Positions 7,131-50,865 of a stretch of DNA of 64,000 nucleotides are shown here, piece by piece; within the stretch, counting starts at the first letter, position 1; every line of letters begins with the position of its first letter. Origin of the DNA: a virus; the UHGV virus genome UHGV-0300374, one strand, 5' to 3'. Both the position numbers and the translations under genes were made by a program. The notes below the pieces were generated by a model. That model did no database searches. It was given only the letters and a program-made list of their open reading frames with translations, and was not told the DNA's origin.

Positions 7131-7156
7131 TAAAAAAGCCCCTATTTAAAGGGGCT
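7131..7156 (-). terminator. rho-independent terminator ending the minus-strand small-gene array
   Basis: Minus-strand AGCCCCTTTAAATAGGGGCT hairpin followed by TTTTTTAC. Confidence 0.5.
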
Positions 7157-9021: not shown

Positions 9022-9255
9022 CTAGTCTTTTTCAATGATAATTTCATACTGACCATCAACACTATCGAAATAGATTCCGTCGTCATCTTCTGTCTTAAAG
9101 TAACACTGAATATCATCACTTGCGGGGTAGTCTTGCCTTGCTATCTGGCAAACTTGAATAGCATTTTCTTTACTTCCTGTAAACTCTTCAAGCCCTTTAA
9201 AATCGCATGAATGACCGTTACAAATAGAAAGGATGAGGTAAACGGTTGTAAGCAT
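9022..9255 (-). CDS. hypothetical small protein with hydrophobic N-terminus
   Basis: 77-aa ORF; N-terminus MLTTVYLILSICNG; preceded by a different stem-loop (agccccttacaggggct) and RBS GGGAGG. Confidence 0.35.
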   Translation of the reverse strand: MLTTVYLILSICNGHSCDFKGLEEFTGSKENAIQVCQIARQDYPASDDIQCYFKTEDDDGIYFDSVDGQYEIIIEKD

Positions 9256-9321
9256 GATTTAAGCCTCCCAAAAGCCCCTGTAAGGGGCTAAATAGTGTTT
9301 ATAAGGTGATTGCATAGGTTT

Positions 9322-9864: not shown

Positions 9865-9949
9865 TTTTGAATCTCCAGTTTAGGATTTAGTGGTAAAGCT
9901 CTTTATCTGGGGCTTAAGATATCAACTTTTAAGCCCCTTGTAAAGTACT

Positions 9950-10153
9950 TTATTTGTTATTTTTGACAACTTTTAAAACTGCAAGATAACCTAAGCAATA
10001 AGAATCCCCGAAGAGAGTTCTACCCATGAAAGAGTCCTCTTTGATATCCTTTGCAGTGACAGTTTTTTCTACGCCGTGGGAAAGGACTACATCACCGACT
10101 TTAATATCTTTGATGTGTGCAGTCTCGATAGATACGCCGTTAATAATAGCCAT
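9950..10153 (-). CDS. hypothetical protein (starts MAII)
   Basis: 67-aa ORF with upstream cassette. Confidence 0.4.
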   Translation of the reverse strand: MAIINGVSIETAHIKDIKVGDVVLSHGVEKTVTAKDIKEDSFMGRTLFGDSYCLGYLAVLKVVKNNK

Positions 10154-10238
10154 TTTAGAATCTCCAGTTTAGGATTTAGTGGTAAAGCTCTTTATCTGGG
10201 GCTTAAGATATCAACTTTTAAGCCCCTTGTAAAGTACT

Positions 10239-10487
10239 TTATTGCGTCTTCTTCGTAAATATTAGTTTTACAGCGATTGTTGGAAGCTCTTCGATATTTG
10301 TAAATAGTGTTACTTTTTGAGTAGTAACCTTGTAACCGTTTTTTGCAGCGTAACCCGTAAAGCGGTTAACCGTGTAGCTATATGTTTTTGGTGTATTGTC
10401 TGGCATATGGTACAGGAAAGGTTTGCCTAAATTTTCTGGTTGCGTCAACAGTCGGCAAGTATCAGGGATATTTAAAAAATTCATCAT
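10239..10487 (-). CDS. hypothetical protein
   Basis: 82-aa ORF with upstream cassette. Confidence 0.4.
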   Translation of the reverse strand: MMNFLNIPDTCRLLTQPENLGKPFLYHMPDNTPKTYSYTVNRFTGYAAKNGYKVTTQKVTLFTNIEELPTIAVKLIFTKKTQ

Positions 10488-10550
10488 TTTAGAATCTCCA
10501 GTTTAGGACTTTATTTAGTGGGGAAGGTCATTCCCTCCCCGTTGATGTGT

Positions 10551-10579
10551 AATTTAATCTATCTAAAAATCAGTGTCAA
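10551..10579 (-). promoter_or_regulatory. sigma70-like promoter within cassette (minus strand TTGACA-N17-TAAATT)
   Basis: -35 TTGACA (10574-10579) and -10 TAAATT (10551-10556), 17-nt spacer, upstream of stem-loop and RBS for gene 10239-10487. Confidence 0.5.
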
Positions 10580-10588
10580 CAAAATTTT

Positions 10589-10993
10589 TTAAAGTTCTGC
10601 ATAAATTGCATCACAGATATTACGGAAGTCATGATTAGTCAAATTACGCTGCAACCAAGTGGCGAAAAAGTCAGCGATTGCAAAGTTAGCATCATACTCG
10701 ACAGATAGCCACACTTTAACAGCAAATCGGAACATTTTCAAATCTAACTCTTTATTCATTACCTTAGATTTGCCTAACATGTCGGACATTTCATATTGCG
10801 CACCGTCTAGCGTGATACCTGCTGCAACGTCAGCCAATGAATTTTTTACGTTTTCAACGTCTAAAATAACGCTTTGAATCTTCCCGATAATGTTGTGCAA
10901 TGTCTCATCAGGTGCTGATGACGTAATAACATTAATCCGGTTGACGGTCAAACGTGCTTTTAAAATTGATAATTCACGGTTATTAATAGCCAT
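10589..10993 (-). CDS. hypothetical protein (starts MAIN)
   Basis: 134-aa ORF with upstream cassette. Confidence 0.45.
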   Translation of the reverse strand: MAINNRELSILKARLTVNRINVITSSAPDETLHNIIGKIQSVILDVENVKNSLADVAAGITLDGAQYEMSDMLGKSKVMNKELDLKMFRFAVKVWLSVEYDANFAIADFFATWLQRNLTNHDFRNICDAIYAEL

Positions 10994-11078
10994 TTTAGAA
11001 TCTCCAATTTAGGATTTAGTGGTAAAGTTCTTTATCTGGGGCTTACTTTATCGAACTATAAGCCCCTTGTAAAGTACT

Positions 11079-11351
11079 TTATACTAAATGCAGCTTTTTA
11101 CCTTTTACTATAATGTAACTCGATGCGCTATTGCTTTGCACATCCTGATAAATTCTGCGCAAACGTCCTTCGTAGTATACTTTCCAACTGGTTGGAATCT
11201 TTTTCCCGTATCCTGTAGCAGTTTTTTGGAGTCCTGCAACTTGCCAATCCAAAATGTGCTGTTCAGCTTGTAAATCCTCGAAGTGCATTACACCGTTCAC
11301 ATAGTGGCGTAGGGTTACGTTTAAGGTGCGACCGTTGTTAGTAGTGTACAT
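11079..11351 (-). CDS. hypothetical protein
   Basis: Track ORF 11079-11393 trimmed to ATG at 11351, preceded by AGGAG RBS. Confidence 0.4.
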   Translation of the reverse strand: MYTTNNGRTLNVTLRHYVNGVMHFEDLQAEQHILDWQVAGLQKTATGYGKKIPTSWKVYYEGRLRRIYQDVQSNSASSYIIVKGKKLHLV

Positions 11352-11376
11352 TTTAAAAGCTCCTAGTTTAAGGGTT

Positions 11377-11535
11377 TTATTTTGACAGTTCACTAATTAA
11401 GACATCAAAGATTATATCATTATCTGCTACAGTTGCAACACCAGTGATATAATCAATTTCTAGGATAACAACAACTTTCGTACATAAACCGTCATCTATA
11501 TCATTCCAGACAACTTTATCACCTGCACAAAACAT
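11377..11535 (-). CDS. hypothetical small protein (52 aa), missed by the 60-aa ORF cut-off
   Basis: ATG immediately after a full variant-a cassette (RBS GGAGA); translation MFCAGDKVVWNDIDDGLCTKVVVILEIDYITGVATVADNDIIFDVLISELSK. Confidence 0.3.
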   Translation of the reverse strand: MFCAGDKVVWNDIDDGLCTKVVVILEIDYITGVATVADNDIIFDVLISELSK

Positions 11536-11599
11536 TTTCAGAATCTCCAGTTTAGGACTTTATTTAGTGGGGAAGGTCATTCCCTCCCCGTTGATGTGT

Positions 11600-11628
11600 A
11601 ATTTAACCTATCTAAAAACCAGTGTCAA
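11600..11628 (-). promoter_or_regulatory. sigma70-like promoter within cassette (minus strand TTGACA-N17-TAAATT)
   Basis: Same architecture as 10551-10579; -35 overlaps the stop codon of the upstream gene. Confidence 0.5.
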
Positions 11629-11957
11629 CAGTTTTGTTTTCGTTTGCTCAATTCTTGAACAATTACAGCATGATAGTCTTTTAAATCACTGATATTTAAA
11701 GCATTTATCAGAGAGTTATAATCATCGACTAACTGAAAATTATCTTTGAAGATGTCACTTATCTGATAGGTTTTCGCTTTATATCTGAAGCTCATCTCTA
11801 GCCGCTTTATTTGCTCATCACTGAGGCGCCCTAGAAAGCTTTCTACAAGGTTATTACTAACCTGCTGTGTGATTGACTTATTTGCTAGATTATAGGCTTT
11901 ATATGCCTTATATAGCGCGAAAATGGCAATGATTGCAGTGATACCAGTCATTAACAT
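11625..11957 (-). CDS. hypothetical membrane protein (N-terminal TM helix)
   Basis: 110-aa ORF; N-terminus MLMTGITAIIAIFALYKAYKAY. Confidence 0.4.
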   Translation of the reverse strand: MLMTGITAIIAIFALYKAYKAYNLANKSITQQVSNNLVESFLGRLSDEQIKRLEMSFRYKAKTYQISDIFKDNFQLVDDYNSLINALNISDLKDYHAVIVQELSKRKQNC

Positions 11958-12247
11958 GGTGTTTCCTCTTTACGTGATACTTTGCCATTTACAGTTATCT
12001 CATAGGATTCTAATAAATCGCTTTTAGACTTTACAGGACTTTTAAAAGTATCATCATAAATATTAACTTGCAATACAGGCTTTTTATATTCCCTACAACT
12101 ATTCCATAAGCAAATCACTACACGACGGCCTTTTATTTTGCCGTGTAACCATTCCATAACATCATGACTATTCCTTGATGTTTCAATGAAATCAATTTTG
12201 TTGAGTAATTTGCTTATACTTTCACGGACTCTATTTGATAATTTCAT
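11951..12247 (-). CDS. hypothetical protein
   Basis: 98-aa ORF with upstream cassette. Confidence 0.4.
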   Translation of the reverse strand: MKLSNRVRESISKLLNKIDFIETSRNSHDVMEWLHGKIKGRRVVICLWNSCREYKKPVLQVNIYDDTFKSPVKSKSDLLESYEITVNGKVSRKEETPC

Positions 12248-12337
12248 TTTGAATCTCCTAGTTTAAGGGTTATTTTGATAAATCTCTTTATCTGGGGCTA
12301 TCATATCAGCTTGTTAGCCCCGTGTAAAGAGGTCTAT

Positions 12338-12850
12338 TTAGTTCTTAAAGATATTCATCACTGAATCTTTTAATGCTTCCAAGCGTTCTAATACTTCAGT
12401 TTCTGCGTCTGAATTGTTCACCTCTTCTTTTAGTCTATCCTCTAAATCATCGCCGTCACTATAGCACCAATCAAAGGCATATCCTAGATAAAAACTCTCT
12501 AAAACCGTGTTGCCATTTGCATCGATAACTTTCGCGGCAAGGTTGTATTCTGAAGCCTCTAAATCTCTTTCTAGTTCTTTCTGTAAGCTGGTGTAAGCCT
12601 CTTTTGATGGGTTTTCCCGGCCTTGTTTTGCATAGTCACTTGAAAGCTGTTTAAGGCTGTAATGCAAAGGGATTGCATATTTAAAATCATTATGCTGACA
12701 GTTAGGATTTTTAACAGTCACACCGCCTTGATGGTCGTTTGTAAACTCCCAATTATCGAGATTATGGCTTGCTTCGTAGCAATTTACCGCTTCGTAGATG
12801 ATGGAAAATTTTTCTTTTACAACTTCAAAGGTAGCGTCTACAGTTTTCAT
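12338..12850 (-). CDS. hypothetical acidic protein
   Basis: 170-aa ORF with upstream cassette. Confidence 0.45.
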   Translation of the reverse strand: MKTVDATFEVVKEKFSIIYEAVNCYEASHNLDNWEFTNDHQGGVTVKNPNCQHNDFKYAIPLHYSLKQLSSDYAKQGRENPSKEAYTSLQKELERDLEASEYNLAAKVIDANGNTVLESFYLGYAFDWCYSDGDDLEDRLKEEVNNSDAETEVLERLEALKDSVMNIFKN

Positions 12851-12935
12851 TTTAGAATCTCCAGTTTAGGATTTAGTGGTAAAGCTCTTTATCTGGGGCT
12901 TAAGATATCAACTTTTAAGCCCCCTGTAAAGTACT

Positions 12936-13229
12936 TTATTTGTTAATTTTCAGCTTTGCATAACTTCTCATTGTACGAATGGGGGATGTTAATGCTACGC
13001 GTCTAATGTATGCCTTTTTCGTGTATACATTTGTCTTCCCGATAGTGTTTACACATGTAAAAAGGTTTATCGGTGAATTTTTTAACTTCAACTGTTTATC
13101 AACCTTCACGCCCCACCTTACAGCAGATTGTTTTCCGTTGTCAACCACTTTCCCGCATAACTTTTTAGCCATGATACGAGCGTCATCACGAGTCTTTGCG
13201 GTAATTACAACGTTTTTGATAATAGCCAT
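12936..13229 (-). CDS. hypothetical basic protein (starts MAII)
   Basis: Track ORF trimmed to the ATG that directly follows the cassette. Confidence 0.4.
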   Translation of the reverse strand: MAIIKNVVITAKTRDDARIMAKKLCGKVVDNGKQSAVRWGVKVDKQLKLKNSPINLFTCVNTIGKTNVYTKKAYIRRVALTSPIRTMRSYAKLKINK

Positions 13230-13315
13230 TTTTAAGTTCTCCAATTTAGGATTTAGTGTTAAAGCTCTTTATCTGGGGCTTACTTTATCGAACTATAAGC
13301 CCCTTGTAAAGTACT

Positions 13316-13699
13316 TTATTTGTTAATTTTGAAGATAGTTACATAACCATCGCTGCCGATGATTTGTGATGCTCCAGCTTTTTCTACTTGATAGCCCATA
13401 TTTTCAAGATGGTAAACAGCATCATCATAACCATATGCGCCGCCCTGATAACGTCTCTTATCACATCTTACTAATACCTTTCCACGTCCTGCCAGTGCAT
13501 TTAGTACGGCTTTTTCACTTGAAAGTGTACCATCTAACATGGTTGCCGTGTAATGGTTGATTCTATTCCCGTTTACATCATACTTAAAATTGAATGCGTG
13601 AACAACGATAATGTTACCTTTAAAATTTTCATCAAGTGACTTCTCCAGTGCGTTGCGAAAGTTGTCTTTGTTGATGAATTTAGGTGCACGATATGCCAT
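13316..13699 (-). CDS. hypothetical protein
   Basis: 127-aa ORF, first gene of the array. Confidence 0.45.
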   Translation of the reverse strand: MAYRAPKFINKDNFRNALEKSLDENFKGNIIVVHAFNFKYDVNGNRINHYTATMLDGTLSSEKAVLNALAGRGKVLVRCDKRRYQGGAYGYDDAVYHLENMGYQVEKAGASQIIGSDGYVTIFKINK

Positions 13700-13964: not shown

Positions 13965-14155
13965 ACCTACCTGCACGATTCTAAAATGATTTTTCTTGCC
14001 CGACCTGAGCGGGGTCTGCACGTTTTGAAAATGAAAAAGCCCTTTGGAGATTACCTGCACAATTTGAAAATGAATTTTCTCTTTGGAGTTCAAAATTTTC
14101 TCTACAGATTTCTCTATAGAAATATACCTGCACAATTCTGAAATGAAAAAGCCCT
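13965..14155. repeat. four direct repeats, consensus ACCTGCACAATTYTGAAAATGA
   Basis: Copies near 13968, 14015, 14053 and 14125 in the non-coding region between the macro-domain gene and the small-gene array. Confidence 0.55.
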
Positions 14156-14219
14156 CCTTACCTGAAAAATTTACCAGATAAGAAAGGCTTAACCTATTGT
14201 GAATATTCTACAGAGTTTC

Positions 14220-49054: not shown

Positions 49055-49087
49055 GAGCATCATAAACCAACGGGTACTCACCAGCAT

Positions 49088-49330
49088 CACTTAAGAGTCT
49101 TTGAAAAGGGTTTTTAAGTGATGTAATGCGTGGCTCGGTGCAGTGAAGTATGGTGGGGTAGGGTATAATATGGTGCGGTAATGTATGGGTAGTTAGTCTC
49201 AGCTACATTAAAATGAGACTTACCTTTTTAAAAGGTCTTTGGAGAGGGTCTTTTAATAAGGTCTGGTGTAGTAGGGTTGGGCATGGTACGGTCCGGTGTG
49301 GTGTGGCACGGTATGGGTGGATGGTAGTAG
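49088..49330 (+). repeat. GT-rich repeat unit copy 1 (hairpins plus degenerate GGTNN pentamer blocks)
   Basis: cacttaagagtctttgaaaagggtttttaagtg hairpin, GT-rich block, gggtagttagtctcagctacattaaaatgagact hairpin, aaaaggtcttt...gggtcttttaataagg, second GT-rich block; recurs at 50480-50865. Confidence 0.6.
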
Positions 49331-49406
49331 CCACGTTAAAAATCTACCAAGTTTCTAAAGAGTCTTCTGTTGAGGGTTCTTTACAAACAACTTAACAATC
49401 AACTAA

Positions 49407-50012
<606 letters not shown>

Positions 50013-50014
50013 TT

Positions 50015-50455
50015 ATGAATACAAAAGCATTAGCAGCAAAGTTTAGTTACGGTGACACTGTATCACATTCTGAGATGGATACCTTCTTAGGTATTGTGAA
50101 ACCAACTTATCAAGGTGACATTGTTAAGTACGAAGATGAAATGAAGGCTTATGCGCTTACACGTCTAAACCGACTTGAGAAGTTTATTGAGAAGCTTCTT
50201 AAAGAAGAGAAGATTTATCTGGTTGCTTCAATGGGTGTTGGTTATCGTGTGGTTGAACCTAAGCATCAAGCAACTATTGCAAAACGTAAAATGTCTGGTA
50301 AGATTGGTCGCGCTTTAAAGCAAGCCACTCAAGCGATTGAGAATGTGAACACTATGGCACTTAGCCATCAAGAACGTTCACGACTAATTGAACAGCAAAA
50401 CCATTTAGCTGCTATGAAAGCTAACATTAACAAGCAACGTAGAAAACCTTTCTAA
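50015..50455 (+). CDS. hypothetical protein
   Basis: 146-aa ORF. Confidence 0.45.
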   Translation: MNTKALAAKFSYGDTVSHSEMDTFLGIVKPTYQGDIVKYEDEMKAYALTRLNRLEKFIEKLLKEEKIYLVASMGVGYRVVEPKHQATIAKRKMSGKIGRALKQATQAIENVNTMALSHQERSRLIEQQNHLAAMKANINKQRRKPF

Positions 50456-50466
50456 GTTGACTAGGT

Positions 50467-50490
50467 AGCCTCTTCGGAGGCTCCTTTTTA
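50467..50490 (+). terminator. rho-independent terminator
   Basis: AGCCTC-TTCG-GAGGCT followed by CCTTTTTA. Confidence 0.6.
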
Positions 50491-50865
50491 AAAGGTCTTT
50501 AAACAGGGTCTTTTAATAAGGTTTAGCTAGGTGGGGTCAGGTCAGGTTAGGTGCGGTATGGTATGGGTAGTTAATCGGAGCTACATTAAAATTCGATTAC
50601 ATCACTTAAGAGTCTTTTAAAAGGGTTTTTAAGTGAGGTGTGGTAAGGCGCGGTTAGGTATGGCGCGGTCAGGTCAGGTGAGGTTTGGTGAGGGTAGTTA
50701 GTCTCAACTACATTAAAATGAGACTCACCTTTTTAAAAGGTCTTTAAAGAGGGTCTTTTAATAAGGCGGGGTACGGCTCGGTCTGGTTGTGTGATGTTCG
50801 GCTTGGTTAGGTAATGTATGGAAGGATGGCAGTAGCCTTATAAAAAATCTGCCAAATAAGCTATA
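50480..50865 (+). repeat. GT-rich repeat unit copies 2 and 3
   Basis: Same conserved hairpin/spacer words as 49088-49330, with sequence-divergent but compositionally similar GGTNN blocks. Confidence 0.6.

Follow-up and report, generated by a model that had tools for sequence, protein, structure and literature searches.

The closest described counterparts of the repeats studied here are the promoter-early stem-loop (PeSL) cassettes of the T4-like phages RB49/phi1, PST and nt-1 (Arbiol et al., 2010, PMC2839356; Comeau et al., 2014, PMC4122927). A PeSL of about 100 base pairs (bp) runs from the upstream stop codon, lying in an A/T-rich tract, through sigma-70 boxes, a GGGG...CCCC stem-loop and a Shine-Dalgarno (SD) sequence to the ATG (PMC2839356). 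The stem-loop is located between the boxes, over the −10 box or after it, and the cassettes are clustered among ORFans, where they take part in modular shuffling (PMC2839356, PMC4122927). In RB49, crossovers were mapped between the −10 box or the SD and the ATG, and promoter activity, terminator activity and mini-circles were demonstrated by experiment (PMC2839356). Here we analyzed a stretch of viral DNA of 64,000 nucleotides (nt) from virus genome UHGV-0300374, hereafter called the window, in which short intergenic units recur upstream of small genes on the minus strand.

The DNA belongs to a Felix O1-like myovirus (Felixounavirus), the top match being Escherichia phage finno with 94% identity. 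Two true terminators (14190 and 7137) enclose a group of 16 small ORFans on the minus strand, nearly all of which are preceded by a composite regulatory cassette; a cassette unit was found upstream of 14 of the 16 genes (7.4–13.8 kb), and none in the remaining window. Genes are designated below by the first residues of their products, and all coordinates are collected in Table 1. The reading that we favor, with a probability of roughly 70%, is that the units are promoter–hairpin–ribosome-site cassettes which serve as recombination joints, and that the Met-Ala-Ile (MAI) start found in three of the genes belongs to the genes and not to the repeat.

Architecture of the units

Units of two types, A and B, were distinguished. 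On the minus strand, all six B units and the type-A units coincide exactly with intergenic intervals, reaching from the stop codon of one gene to the ATG of the next. On the gene strand, the type-B unit reads ...AAAATTAACAAA-TAA(stop)-AGTAC-TTTACA-A-GGGGCTTAA-aagttga-TATCTT-AAGCCCC-AGATAAAGAGCTTTACCACTAAATCCTAAACT-GGAG-ATTCTAAA-ATG. An A/T-rich tract (AAAATTAACAAATAAAG), which contains the final codons of the preceding gene together with its stop, thus stands upstream of the promoter boxes TTTACA and TAnnnT, which are separated by a 17-nt spacer and followed by a leader of ~45 nt, GGAG, 8 nt and the ATG. The GGAG, a distance of 8–9 nt and the ATG are common to all copies.

For comparison, 30 related loci from ~24 genomes were taken from IMG/VR and GenBank, and a gene-order table was made for 26 loci. 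TTTACA is present in all 66 distinct type-B variants (31 loci), and TAnnnT, which occurs in 10 hexamer forms, follows at a distance of exactly 17 nt in 64 of them, while each of the other offsets tested accounts for at most one variant. The promoter scan detects every type-B copy.

The spacer and the −10 box of type B are spanned by a GGGG...CCCC hairpin with a 9-bp GC stem, which flanking arms (TAAAGT.ACTTTA with TAAAG.AGCTTTA) lengthen to ~20 bp. Predicted fold energies range from −23 to −24 kcal/mol with z-scores of −3.8 to −4.5 (−23.8 kcal/mol and z = −3.8 for the unit at 9865). Across the type-B variants, 97.5% of the cells in the stem are paired, compared with 28–56% when the 3' partners are slid by 1–3 positions, and compensatory double changes occur at four stem pairs. 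The stems contain many T-G wobbles on the sense strand, suggesting that the hairpin acts in the sense RNA. In type A, the hairpin lies just after the −10 box, at the very 5' end of the predicted transcript, and the leader is the one found in type B; in the GenBank entry for phage ASO1A, a promoter and a terminator are marked at a type-A cassette. The terminator scan of the region detected no T-run after the unit hairpins, which were accordingly rejected as canonical intrinsic terminators, and its only canonical calls were the sites at 14190–14149 and 7156–7137 that bracket the cluster. An Rfam scan of 6.5–15 kb yielded no family at gathering score, the sole match being mir-980, a chance one (E = 0.23). 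We propose that the host sigma-70 RNA polymerase would initiate at each unit, and that the hairpin, in the sense RNA, may either attenuate transcription entering from upstream or stabilise the 3' ends of the transcripts concerned.

Three of the type-B copies in the window, referred to as b1, occupy exact intergenic intervals and are identical to each other at 88–89 of the 90 nt preceding the ATG (79–80 of 81 in a gapped alignment); the copies at 9865 and 10154 agree at 89 of 90. The near-identity reported for these three places by the earlier note was therefore confirmed. Two other copies, b2, have the hairpin GGGGCTTATAGTTCGATAAAGTAAGCCCC in common and are ~93% identical, as estimated by eye and not computed. 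The earlier note had placed this sub-variant at 10994–11078 and 13245–13315; its recurrence stands, but the start at 13245 clips the leader and has to be moved to 13230. Searching for a 32-nt core pattern with up to three mismatches returned exactly five matches, the b1 and b2 copies, and none in 100 shuffled sequences. The sixth copy, in front of the MKLS gene, is diverged and retains the outer stem with different bases.

The repeat extends into the 3' end of the upstream open reading frames (ORFs) as well. At 9950–9966, 12936–12952 and 13316–13332, these end in AAAA(A/T)TAACAAATAA, encoding K-(N/I)-N-K-stop, so that the repeat also covers the last codons of three unrelated ORFs. In relatives, the tail is variable (KIN-stop-stop and others) but remains A/T-rich.

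Exchange of cassettes at unit borders

Gene order is collinear across the 26-locus table, and cassettes are gained, lost and, in a single case, permuted only at unit borders. With the type of the preceding unit in parentheses, the window and one related locus (L005) have the order (A) MMNF, (B) MAIING, (B) MKCF, while ASO1A and a second locus (L008) have (A) MAIING, (B) MMNY, (B) MKCF, so that two genes are swapped and the unit order is still A-B-B. Thirteen loci show (A) MAIING, (B) MKCF, and in Mooglevirus, where MMNF is present without MAIING, the order is (A) MMNF, (B) MKCF. The MMNF gene is missing in most relatives and is found, in ASO1A and L008, on the opposite side of MAIING. Between the window and finno, the MMNF indel is bounded by a 23-bp exact repeat of leader and ATG (CCTAAACTGGAGATTCTAAAATG), which ends at the ATG. 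Eight genes are deleted in LF82P5, with a single B unit at the junction, and other genomes are devoid of MAIIK, MKTV, MAYRA or MFCA. In EC106, a novel gene is present, and the unit before it is identical at 81 of 81 positions to the MKCF unit of the same genome. Upstream of MAIING in IMG/VR contig 2706796742 (L006), leader and ATG are fused directly to the type-A promoter spacer, leaving a mini-ORF of 7 codons (MFGFKSK), which resembles the scar left when a gene is lost between two units.

The hairpins themselves show traces of exchange. The b1 and b2 haplotypes differ at ~8 loop positions, each of them was found at at least five loci, several loci are polymorphic for both, and recombinant loops occur. 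Copy pairs with at least 96% identity within a genome amount to 17 of 273, and they involve differing pairs of loci in different genomes, MAIIK and MAINN being the pair that is most often near-identical (7 genomes). In the window, the MAIING gene is flanked by two direct B repeats that lie 289 bp apart and are 89/90 identical. A B unit before this gene was found only in the window and L005 among the loci compared, and the GenBank phage collection contained no contiguous junction of a B leader with MAIING. The b1 trio of the window is one recent homogenisation event. The common haplotypes, the scattered near-identical pairs, the rare and derived B unit before MAIING and the indels at unit borders all support the recent duplication or ongoing gene conversion that had been put forward by the earlier note.

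Type-B units of Felixounavirus that are orthologous between genomes have a mean identity of 90.7%, compared with 84.9% for paralogous units within a genome; we consequently rejected continuous homogenisation within genomes at the strain level. Paralogous units within Mooglevirus genomes have a mean identity of 87.2%. Between the two genera, the mean is 82.1% for units with the same downstream gene and 81.1% for units with different ones. Paralogues within a genus (85–87%) are thus more alike than orthologues between genera (82%), arguing for concerted evolution of the type-B units on the time-scale of genera, with only occasional homogenisation among strains, as judged from these identities.

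Taken together, the comparison of genomes indicates that the units are substrates for homologous non-allelic recombination, which keeps the copies alike, and that the same unit-to-unit recombination deletes, inserts and permutes gene cassettes. The swap of MMNF and MAIING could have proceeded by excision of a circle through B × B exchange, followed by re-insertion via the leader shared with the A unit, a route that is the mini-circle model proposed for PeSLs.

The Met-Ala-Ile start and competing readings

The genes ending in the window at 10153, 10993 and 13229 on their upstream side start with ATGGCTATTATTAAC (MAIIN), ATGGCTATTAATAAC (MAINN) and ATGGCTATTATCAAA (MAIIK), as the earlier note had observed. 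These three ORFans behind near-identical units begin with ATGGCTATTA, 10 nt being common to all, and the MAIIN and MAINN starts match at 14 of 15 positions. According to a rough gene prediction for the window, ATGGCTATT is the start of 3 of the 16 genes in the cluster, compared with 0 of 79 others (Fisher p = 0.004), while ~0.17 such starts are expected and the probability of three or more is ~0.0007 (Poisson, in a post hoc test). Chance was rejected as the cause on the basis of these values. Paralogy of the three proteins was rejected likewise, with pairwise blastp E values of at least 0.76 and assignments to PHROGs 3623, 4327 and 5089.

The start was found to follow the gene. MAIING begins with ATGGCTATTAT(T/C)AA in 20 of 20 loci, although the unit upstream is of type A in 18 of them. 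Conversely, near-identical B units also precede the MKCF, MKTV and MKLS genes, MKCF and MKTV being the genes behind the remaining two of the five b1 and b2 units. The Mooglevirus orthologues start with MATIKN and MTTVNH, and a distant MAIING homologue in an unrelated phage context starts with MKTLEV and is 8 residues shorter at that end. From these comparisons, the MAI start appears to be a property of three unrelated genes that moves together with the gene, irrespective of the unit in front of it.

Expression in Escherichia coli benefits most from AAA or GCU directly after the start codon, and 9 of the 16 genes in the cluster have AAA or GCT/GCA at this place. The MAI start therefore most likely results mainly from selection on the translation-initiation region, with GCU or AAA favored as second codon; an old common origin of the three 5' ends is possible. 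Either way, the ~10 nt of extra homology provided by the MAI start may bias exchange among those cassettes. A switch between the dominant second codons of the cluster is seen in the MAYRA gene (window 13699), which begins with ATGAAATA... (MKYRA) in some Felixounavirus genomes and in Mooglevirus (loci compared: L011, L012, L019, L031), and with ATGGC(A/T)TA... elsewhere, so that codon 2 changes by two bases between GCA/GCT and AAA. Micro-conversion of GCA to AAA from an MK cassette was not accepted as the cause. The change is explained by allelic exchange, since the L012 allele does not differ from that of Mooglevirus Mordin in its first 30 nt.

A leader variant provides a hint in favor of the earlier note. 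The sequence GGAG-AACTTAAAA-ATG was found 26 times, at four loci, and in all 26 cases before genes starting with ATGGC (locus-level Fisher p = 0.029); among the loci compared, it is absent from type-A units and from units preceding MK genes. When IMG/VR was scanned with a 17-mer of this variant, most matches were chance ones in unrelated contigs, and only contigs with a type-B unit upstream were kept. Since the variant lies 0–9 nt from the ATG, its transfer needs homology downstream. We regard it as unlikely, yet worth stating, that short non-allelic conversion tracts run from the leader across the ATG, in which case ATGGCTATTA would be part of the recombination substrate and leader, ATG and first codons of unrelated ORFans would evolve in concert. 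If true, this would amount to homogenisation of the N-termini of unrelated proteins at the DNA level, and cassettes with ATGGC starts and those with ATGAAA starts would form sub-networks that exchange preferentially. L005 was considered as a case of such a tract and rejected; its linked change of codon 4 from ATT to ATC is also present in L025 and L029, behind type-A leaders, which identifies it as allelic variation. The ATT-versus-ACT state of codon 3 is common to two orthologue pairs between genera, at a single site.

The stronger proposal of the earlier note was that the recombining unit includes the leader, the ATG and the first three codons, so that cassettes would swap unrelated gene bodies, in frame, behind an invariant MAI, with conversion tracts passing over the start codon. 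This idea accounts for the restriction of ATGGCTATT to three unrelated ORFans of the cluster among all window genes, for the 26 of 26 association of the AACTTAAAA leader with ATGGC starts, for the frequent near-identity of the MAIIK and MAINN units, and for the missing first 8 residues of the distant MAIING homologue. It is nevertheless improbable, as MAIING retains its start in the 18 of 20 loci with a type-A unit, MK genes are found behind identical B units, MAI is not fixed among the orthologues of related phages (MATIK and MTTVN in Mooglevirus) and the mapped MMNF junction stops at the ATG. No chimeric gene and no swapped body behind MAI was found in the 30 loci, nor was any conversion tract crossing the ATG, the L005 change being allelic. 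The initial observation is thus confirmed and its recombination part supported, while the idea of three fixed codons is not, with a weak hint remaining.

A role in regulation, which would be compatible with the units being recombination joints, was also considered. Two 12-bp palindromes, TAAAGTACTTTA over the stop codon and −35 box and TAAAGAGCTTTA just after the −10 box, lie 47 bp apart, and they could bind a regulator of phage or host that switches the type-B promoters off, the outer stem being a by-product. Both 12-mers are near-perfect palindromes that bracket the core promoter and are conserved in Felixounavirus and Mooglevirus, and bacterial palindromic terminator stems doubling as transcription-factor sites are reported in a preprint (10.64898/2026.08.19.745784). 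The pattern of substitution makes this function doubtful, however. In 6 distinct variants, a G-C pair between the left half of the first palindrome and the right half of the second is replaced by T-A in a double change, which leaves each palindrome asymmetric and the long stem intact. The MKLS copy has its first palindrome swapped out with pairing kept, and the units of Kolesnikvirus have the hairpin-in-promoter design without these 12-mers.

It is very improbable that the copies are alike purely through purifying selection, with cassette differences arising by allelic exchange or illegitimate recombination and the units being no recombination sites, because, although the invariance of TTTACA, TAnnnT, stem and SD indicates strong constraint and orthologous units are more alike than paralogous ones within a genus, the unconstrained b1 and b2 loops recur at at least five loci together with recombinant loops, all indels and the single permutation end in units, paralogues have genus-specific substitutions in common (Mooglevirus 87% versus 82% for orthologues between genera), and the novel EC106 gene has a unit identical at 81 of 81 positions.

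Several points weigh against our interpretation of the units as promoter–hairpin cassettes and recombination joints with a gene-owned MAI start. A terminator role of the hairpins is doubtful because they have no U tract. A literature search on Felix O1-like phages found no transcription-start, termination or recombination experiment, and the promoter and hairpin functions are for this reason read from consensus and covariation only. Homogenisation has to be considered occasional and not continuous, given that orthologous units exceed paralogous ones in identity at the strain level. Finally, selection on the initiation region leaves unexplained both the identical third codon ATT with the A at position 10 (P ~0.0007) and the restriction of the AACTTAAAA leader to genes starting with ATGGC.

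The gene cluster and described systems

The cluster region is matched by 249 Ounavirinae records, whose names are almost all those of Felix O1-like phages of Escherichia, Salmonella, Shigella and Citrobacter. Ten cluster proteins were scanned; none matched a Pfam family, and their PHROG matches are all of unknown function.

Table 1. Units, terminators and selected genes of the cluster, in window coordinates.
Feature	Position	Strand	Details
Type-B unit (b1) before MKCF gene	9865..9949	-	from just after the preceding stop codon to the base before the ATG; −35 TTTACA 9944-9939; −10 TATCTT 9921-9916; hairpin 9909-9937; SD GGAG 9876-9873
Type-B unit (b1) before MAIING gene	10154..10238	-	rare, derived copy; most relatives have type A here
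Type-B unit (b2 hairpin) before MAINN gene	10994..11078	-	−10 is TAAAGT
Type-B unit (b1) before MKTV gene	12851..12935	-	88-89/90 versus other b1 copies
Type-B unit (b2 hairpin) before MAIIK gene	13230..13315	-	leader variant GGAGAACTTAAAAATG; 1-nt insertion in leader
Type-B unit, diverged sixth copy, before MKLS gene	12248..12337	-	TTTACA-17-TATGAT; hairpin GGGGCTAACAAGCTGATATGATAGCCCC
Type-A cassette	10488..10588	-	TTGACA-17-TAAATT; hairpin GGGGAGGGAATGACCTTCCCC in predicted 5' untranslated region; leader and SD as in type B
Other type-A copies (repeat families D2, D3)	before gene starts 7443, 7773, 8365, 8931, 11535, 13699	-	from repeat and promoter scans
Intrinsic terminator, canonical	14149..14190	-	17-bp stem and T-run; upstream cluster edge; matches Felix O1 terminator t13
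Intrinsic terminator, canonical	7137..7156	-	downstream cluster edge; matches Felix O1 terminator t23
ORFan MAIING	9950..10153	-	67 amino acids; PHROG 3623
ORFan MAINN	10589..10993	-	134 amino acids; PHROG 4327
ORFan MAIIK	12936..13229	-	97 amino acids from the ATG at 13229; PHROG 5089
Cassette gene MMNF	10239..10487	-	82 amino acids; mobile, from gene-order and junction comparison

One exception in the cluster is the MLTT gene (9022–9255), whose upstream spacer (9256–9321) contains neither an A nor a B unit; a terminator-like hairpin, GCCCCTTACAGGGGCTTTT, stands there immediately ahead of a GGGAGG ribosome site. On the minus strand at 13985–14150, directly behind the 14190 terminator and ahead of the first cassette, four copies of a ~30-nt motif, TCATTT(T)CA(A/G)AAnnGTGCAGGTA, are followed by the C-rich stretch CCCCTCTCCCCCTCTTACTCCCCCTCTCCCC, and they may be a regulatory or promoter array heading the cluster. 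In several MAIING proteins (P0021 and P0023–P0027, from EC106, SWJM-02 and others), the C-terminal half is frameshifted or truncated, giving 44–64 amino acids compared with 67, suggesting that this cassette gene is dispensable and decaying in some lineages. Elsewhere in the window, two blocks of repeated 85–130-nt units (families D4, D5 and D7) at 49085–49400 and 50483–50811 flank two genes (49425–50455). These blocks, with hairpins such as CATCACTTAAGAG...CTTAAGTGATG and CCTTTTTAAAAGG and GGT-rich runs of a period of ~8 nt, are preceded by a strong TTGACA-17-TATACT site at ~49028 and are unrelated to the cassettes.

Direct repeats of Felix O1 were listed, and recorded only as repeats, by Whichard et al. 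(2010, PMC3185647), who stated that it is unknown how transcription proceeds in this region. Their 57-bp repeat CTTTACATGGGGCTTAAAAGTCTGTAAAGTAAGCCCCAGATAAAGAGCTTTACCACT is the type-B unit and their 39-bp repeat TTGACACTGG...ATCAAC is type A; the same elements are annotated as DR_1–DR_9 in the wV8 record and as repeat_region in Citrobacter phage Mordin. Our literature search found no paper that interprets these repeats or ties Felix O1-like phages to PeSLs. The unit is present in 289 phage records, almost all of Felix O1 type (Escherichia, Salmonella, Shigella, Citrobacter, Erwinia, Hafnia), with 1–9 copies per record among the matches listed. In Hafnia phage SPARTY and Erwinia phage M7 (Kolesnikvirus; L032, L033), units of the same design and different sequence were observed at early genes; they have TTGCAA or TTTACA and a hairpin, GGGGTTACGG...TATAACCCC, with the −10 box in its 3' arm, and neither flanking 12-bp palindromes nor MAI starts were found in these two loci.

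For Felix O1-like phages, which serve in Salmonella typing, biocontrol and therapy, the units provide candidate promoters of early genes and a layout of transcription. Phage stocks are predicted to be prone to deletion at the MAIING gene, which is flanked by the 89/90-identical direct repeats, and the units would be natural landing pads for engineering. Shuffling of single genes through repeats in the PeSL manner extends beyond T4-like phages to a second myovirus subfamily (Felixounavirus and Mooglevirus, with the design also in Kolesnikvirus), with unrelated sequence. This recurrence with unrelated sequence argues for a general solution to the turnover of accessory genes.

Other known systems resemble the cassettes in part. 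In bacterial promoter-coupled terminators, the stem-loop of the upstream unit overlaps the promoter of the next unit and couples the two (Fletcher et al., bioRxiv 10.64898/2026.08.19.745784). These are chromosomal and their own sequence aids the promoter, whereas the stems described here belong to a repeated phage element, have no U tract, and show recombination as their main feature. Integron cassettes (attC) are alike in that single genes move between structured sites, but here each cassette has a predicted promoter of its own, which argues against the integron class, and exchange appears to be driven by homology. Phage morons likewise have their own promoter and terminator, but not the flanks of conserved repeat seen here. 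The authors of the PeSL work compare PeSLs with both integron cassettes and morons (PMC2839356).

With PeSLs, the units have the same order of parts, type B corresponding to a stem-loop between the boxes and over the −10 box and type A to one after the −10 box. They are of like size (~85–100 bp), present in many copies and located in a plastic region rich in ORFans, and the ends of indels and replacements among close relatives fall within them. The A/T-rich ORF tails fit the A/T-rich, UP-like tract described for PeSLs, and the crossover positions in RB49 agree with the 23-bp leader and ATG junction found here. The differences are equally clear. The host lineage is Ounavirinae and not T4-like; there are two discrete sequence families with one leader module; the stem is ~20 bp long and takes in the stop codon and the −35 flank; and the similarity extends a few codons into both neighbouring ORFs. 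Activity and circles were measured for RB49, while promoters, the RNA role of the hairpins and circles are predicted here from consensus, covariation and genome comparison. A blastn search with the unit gave no match in T4-like phages, all matches being in Ounavirinae-type records. Because of these matches and the Felixounavirus host, we classify the units, by their sequence and layout, as an analogue of PeSLs in a new lineage and not as a homologue.

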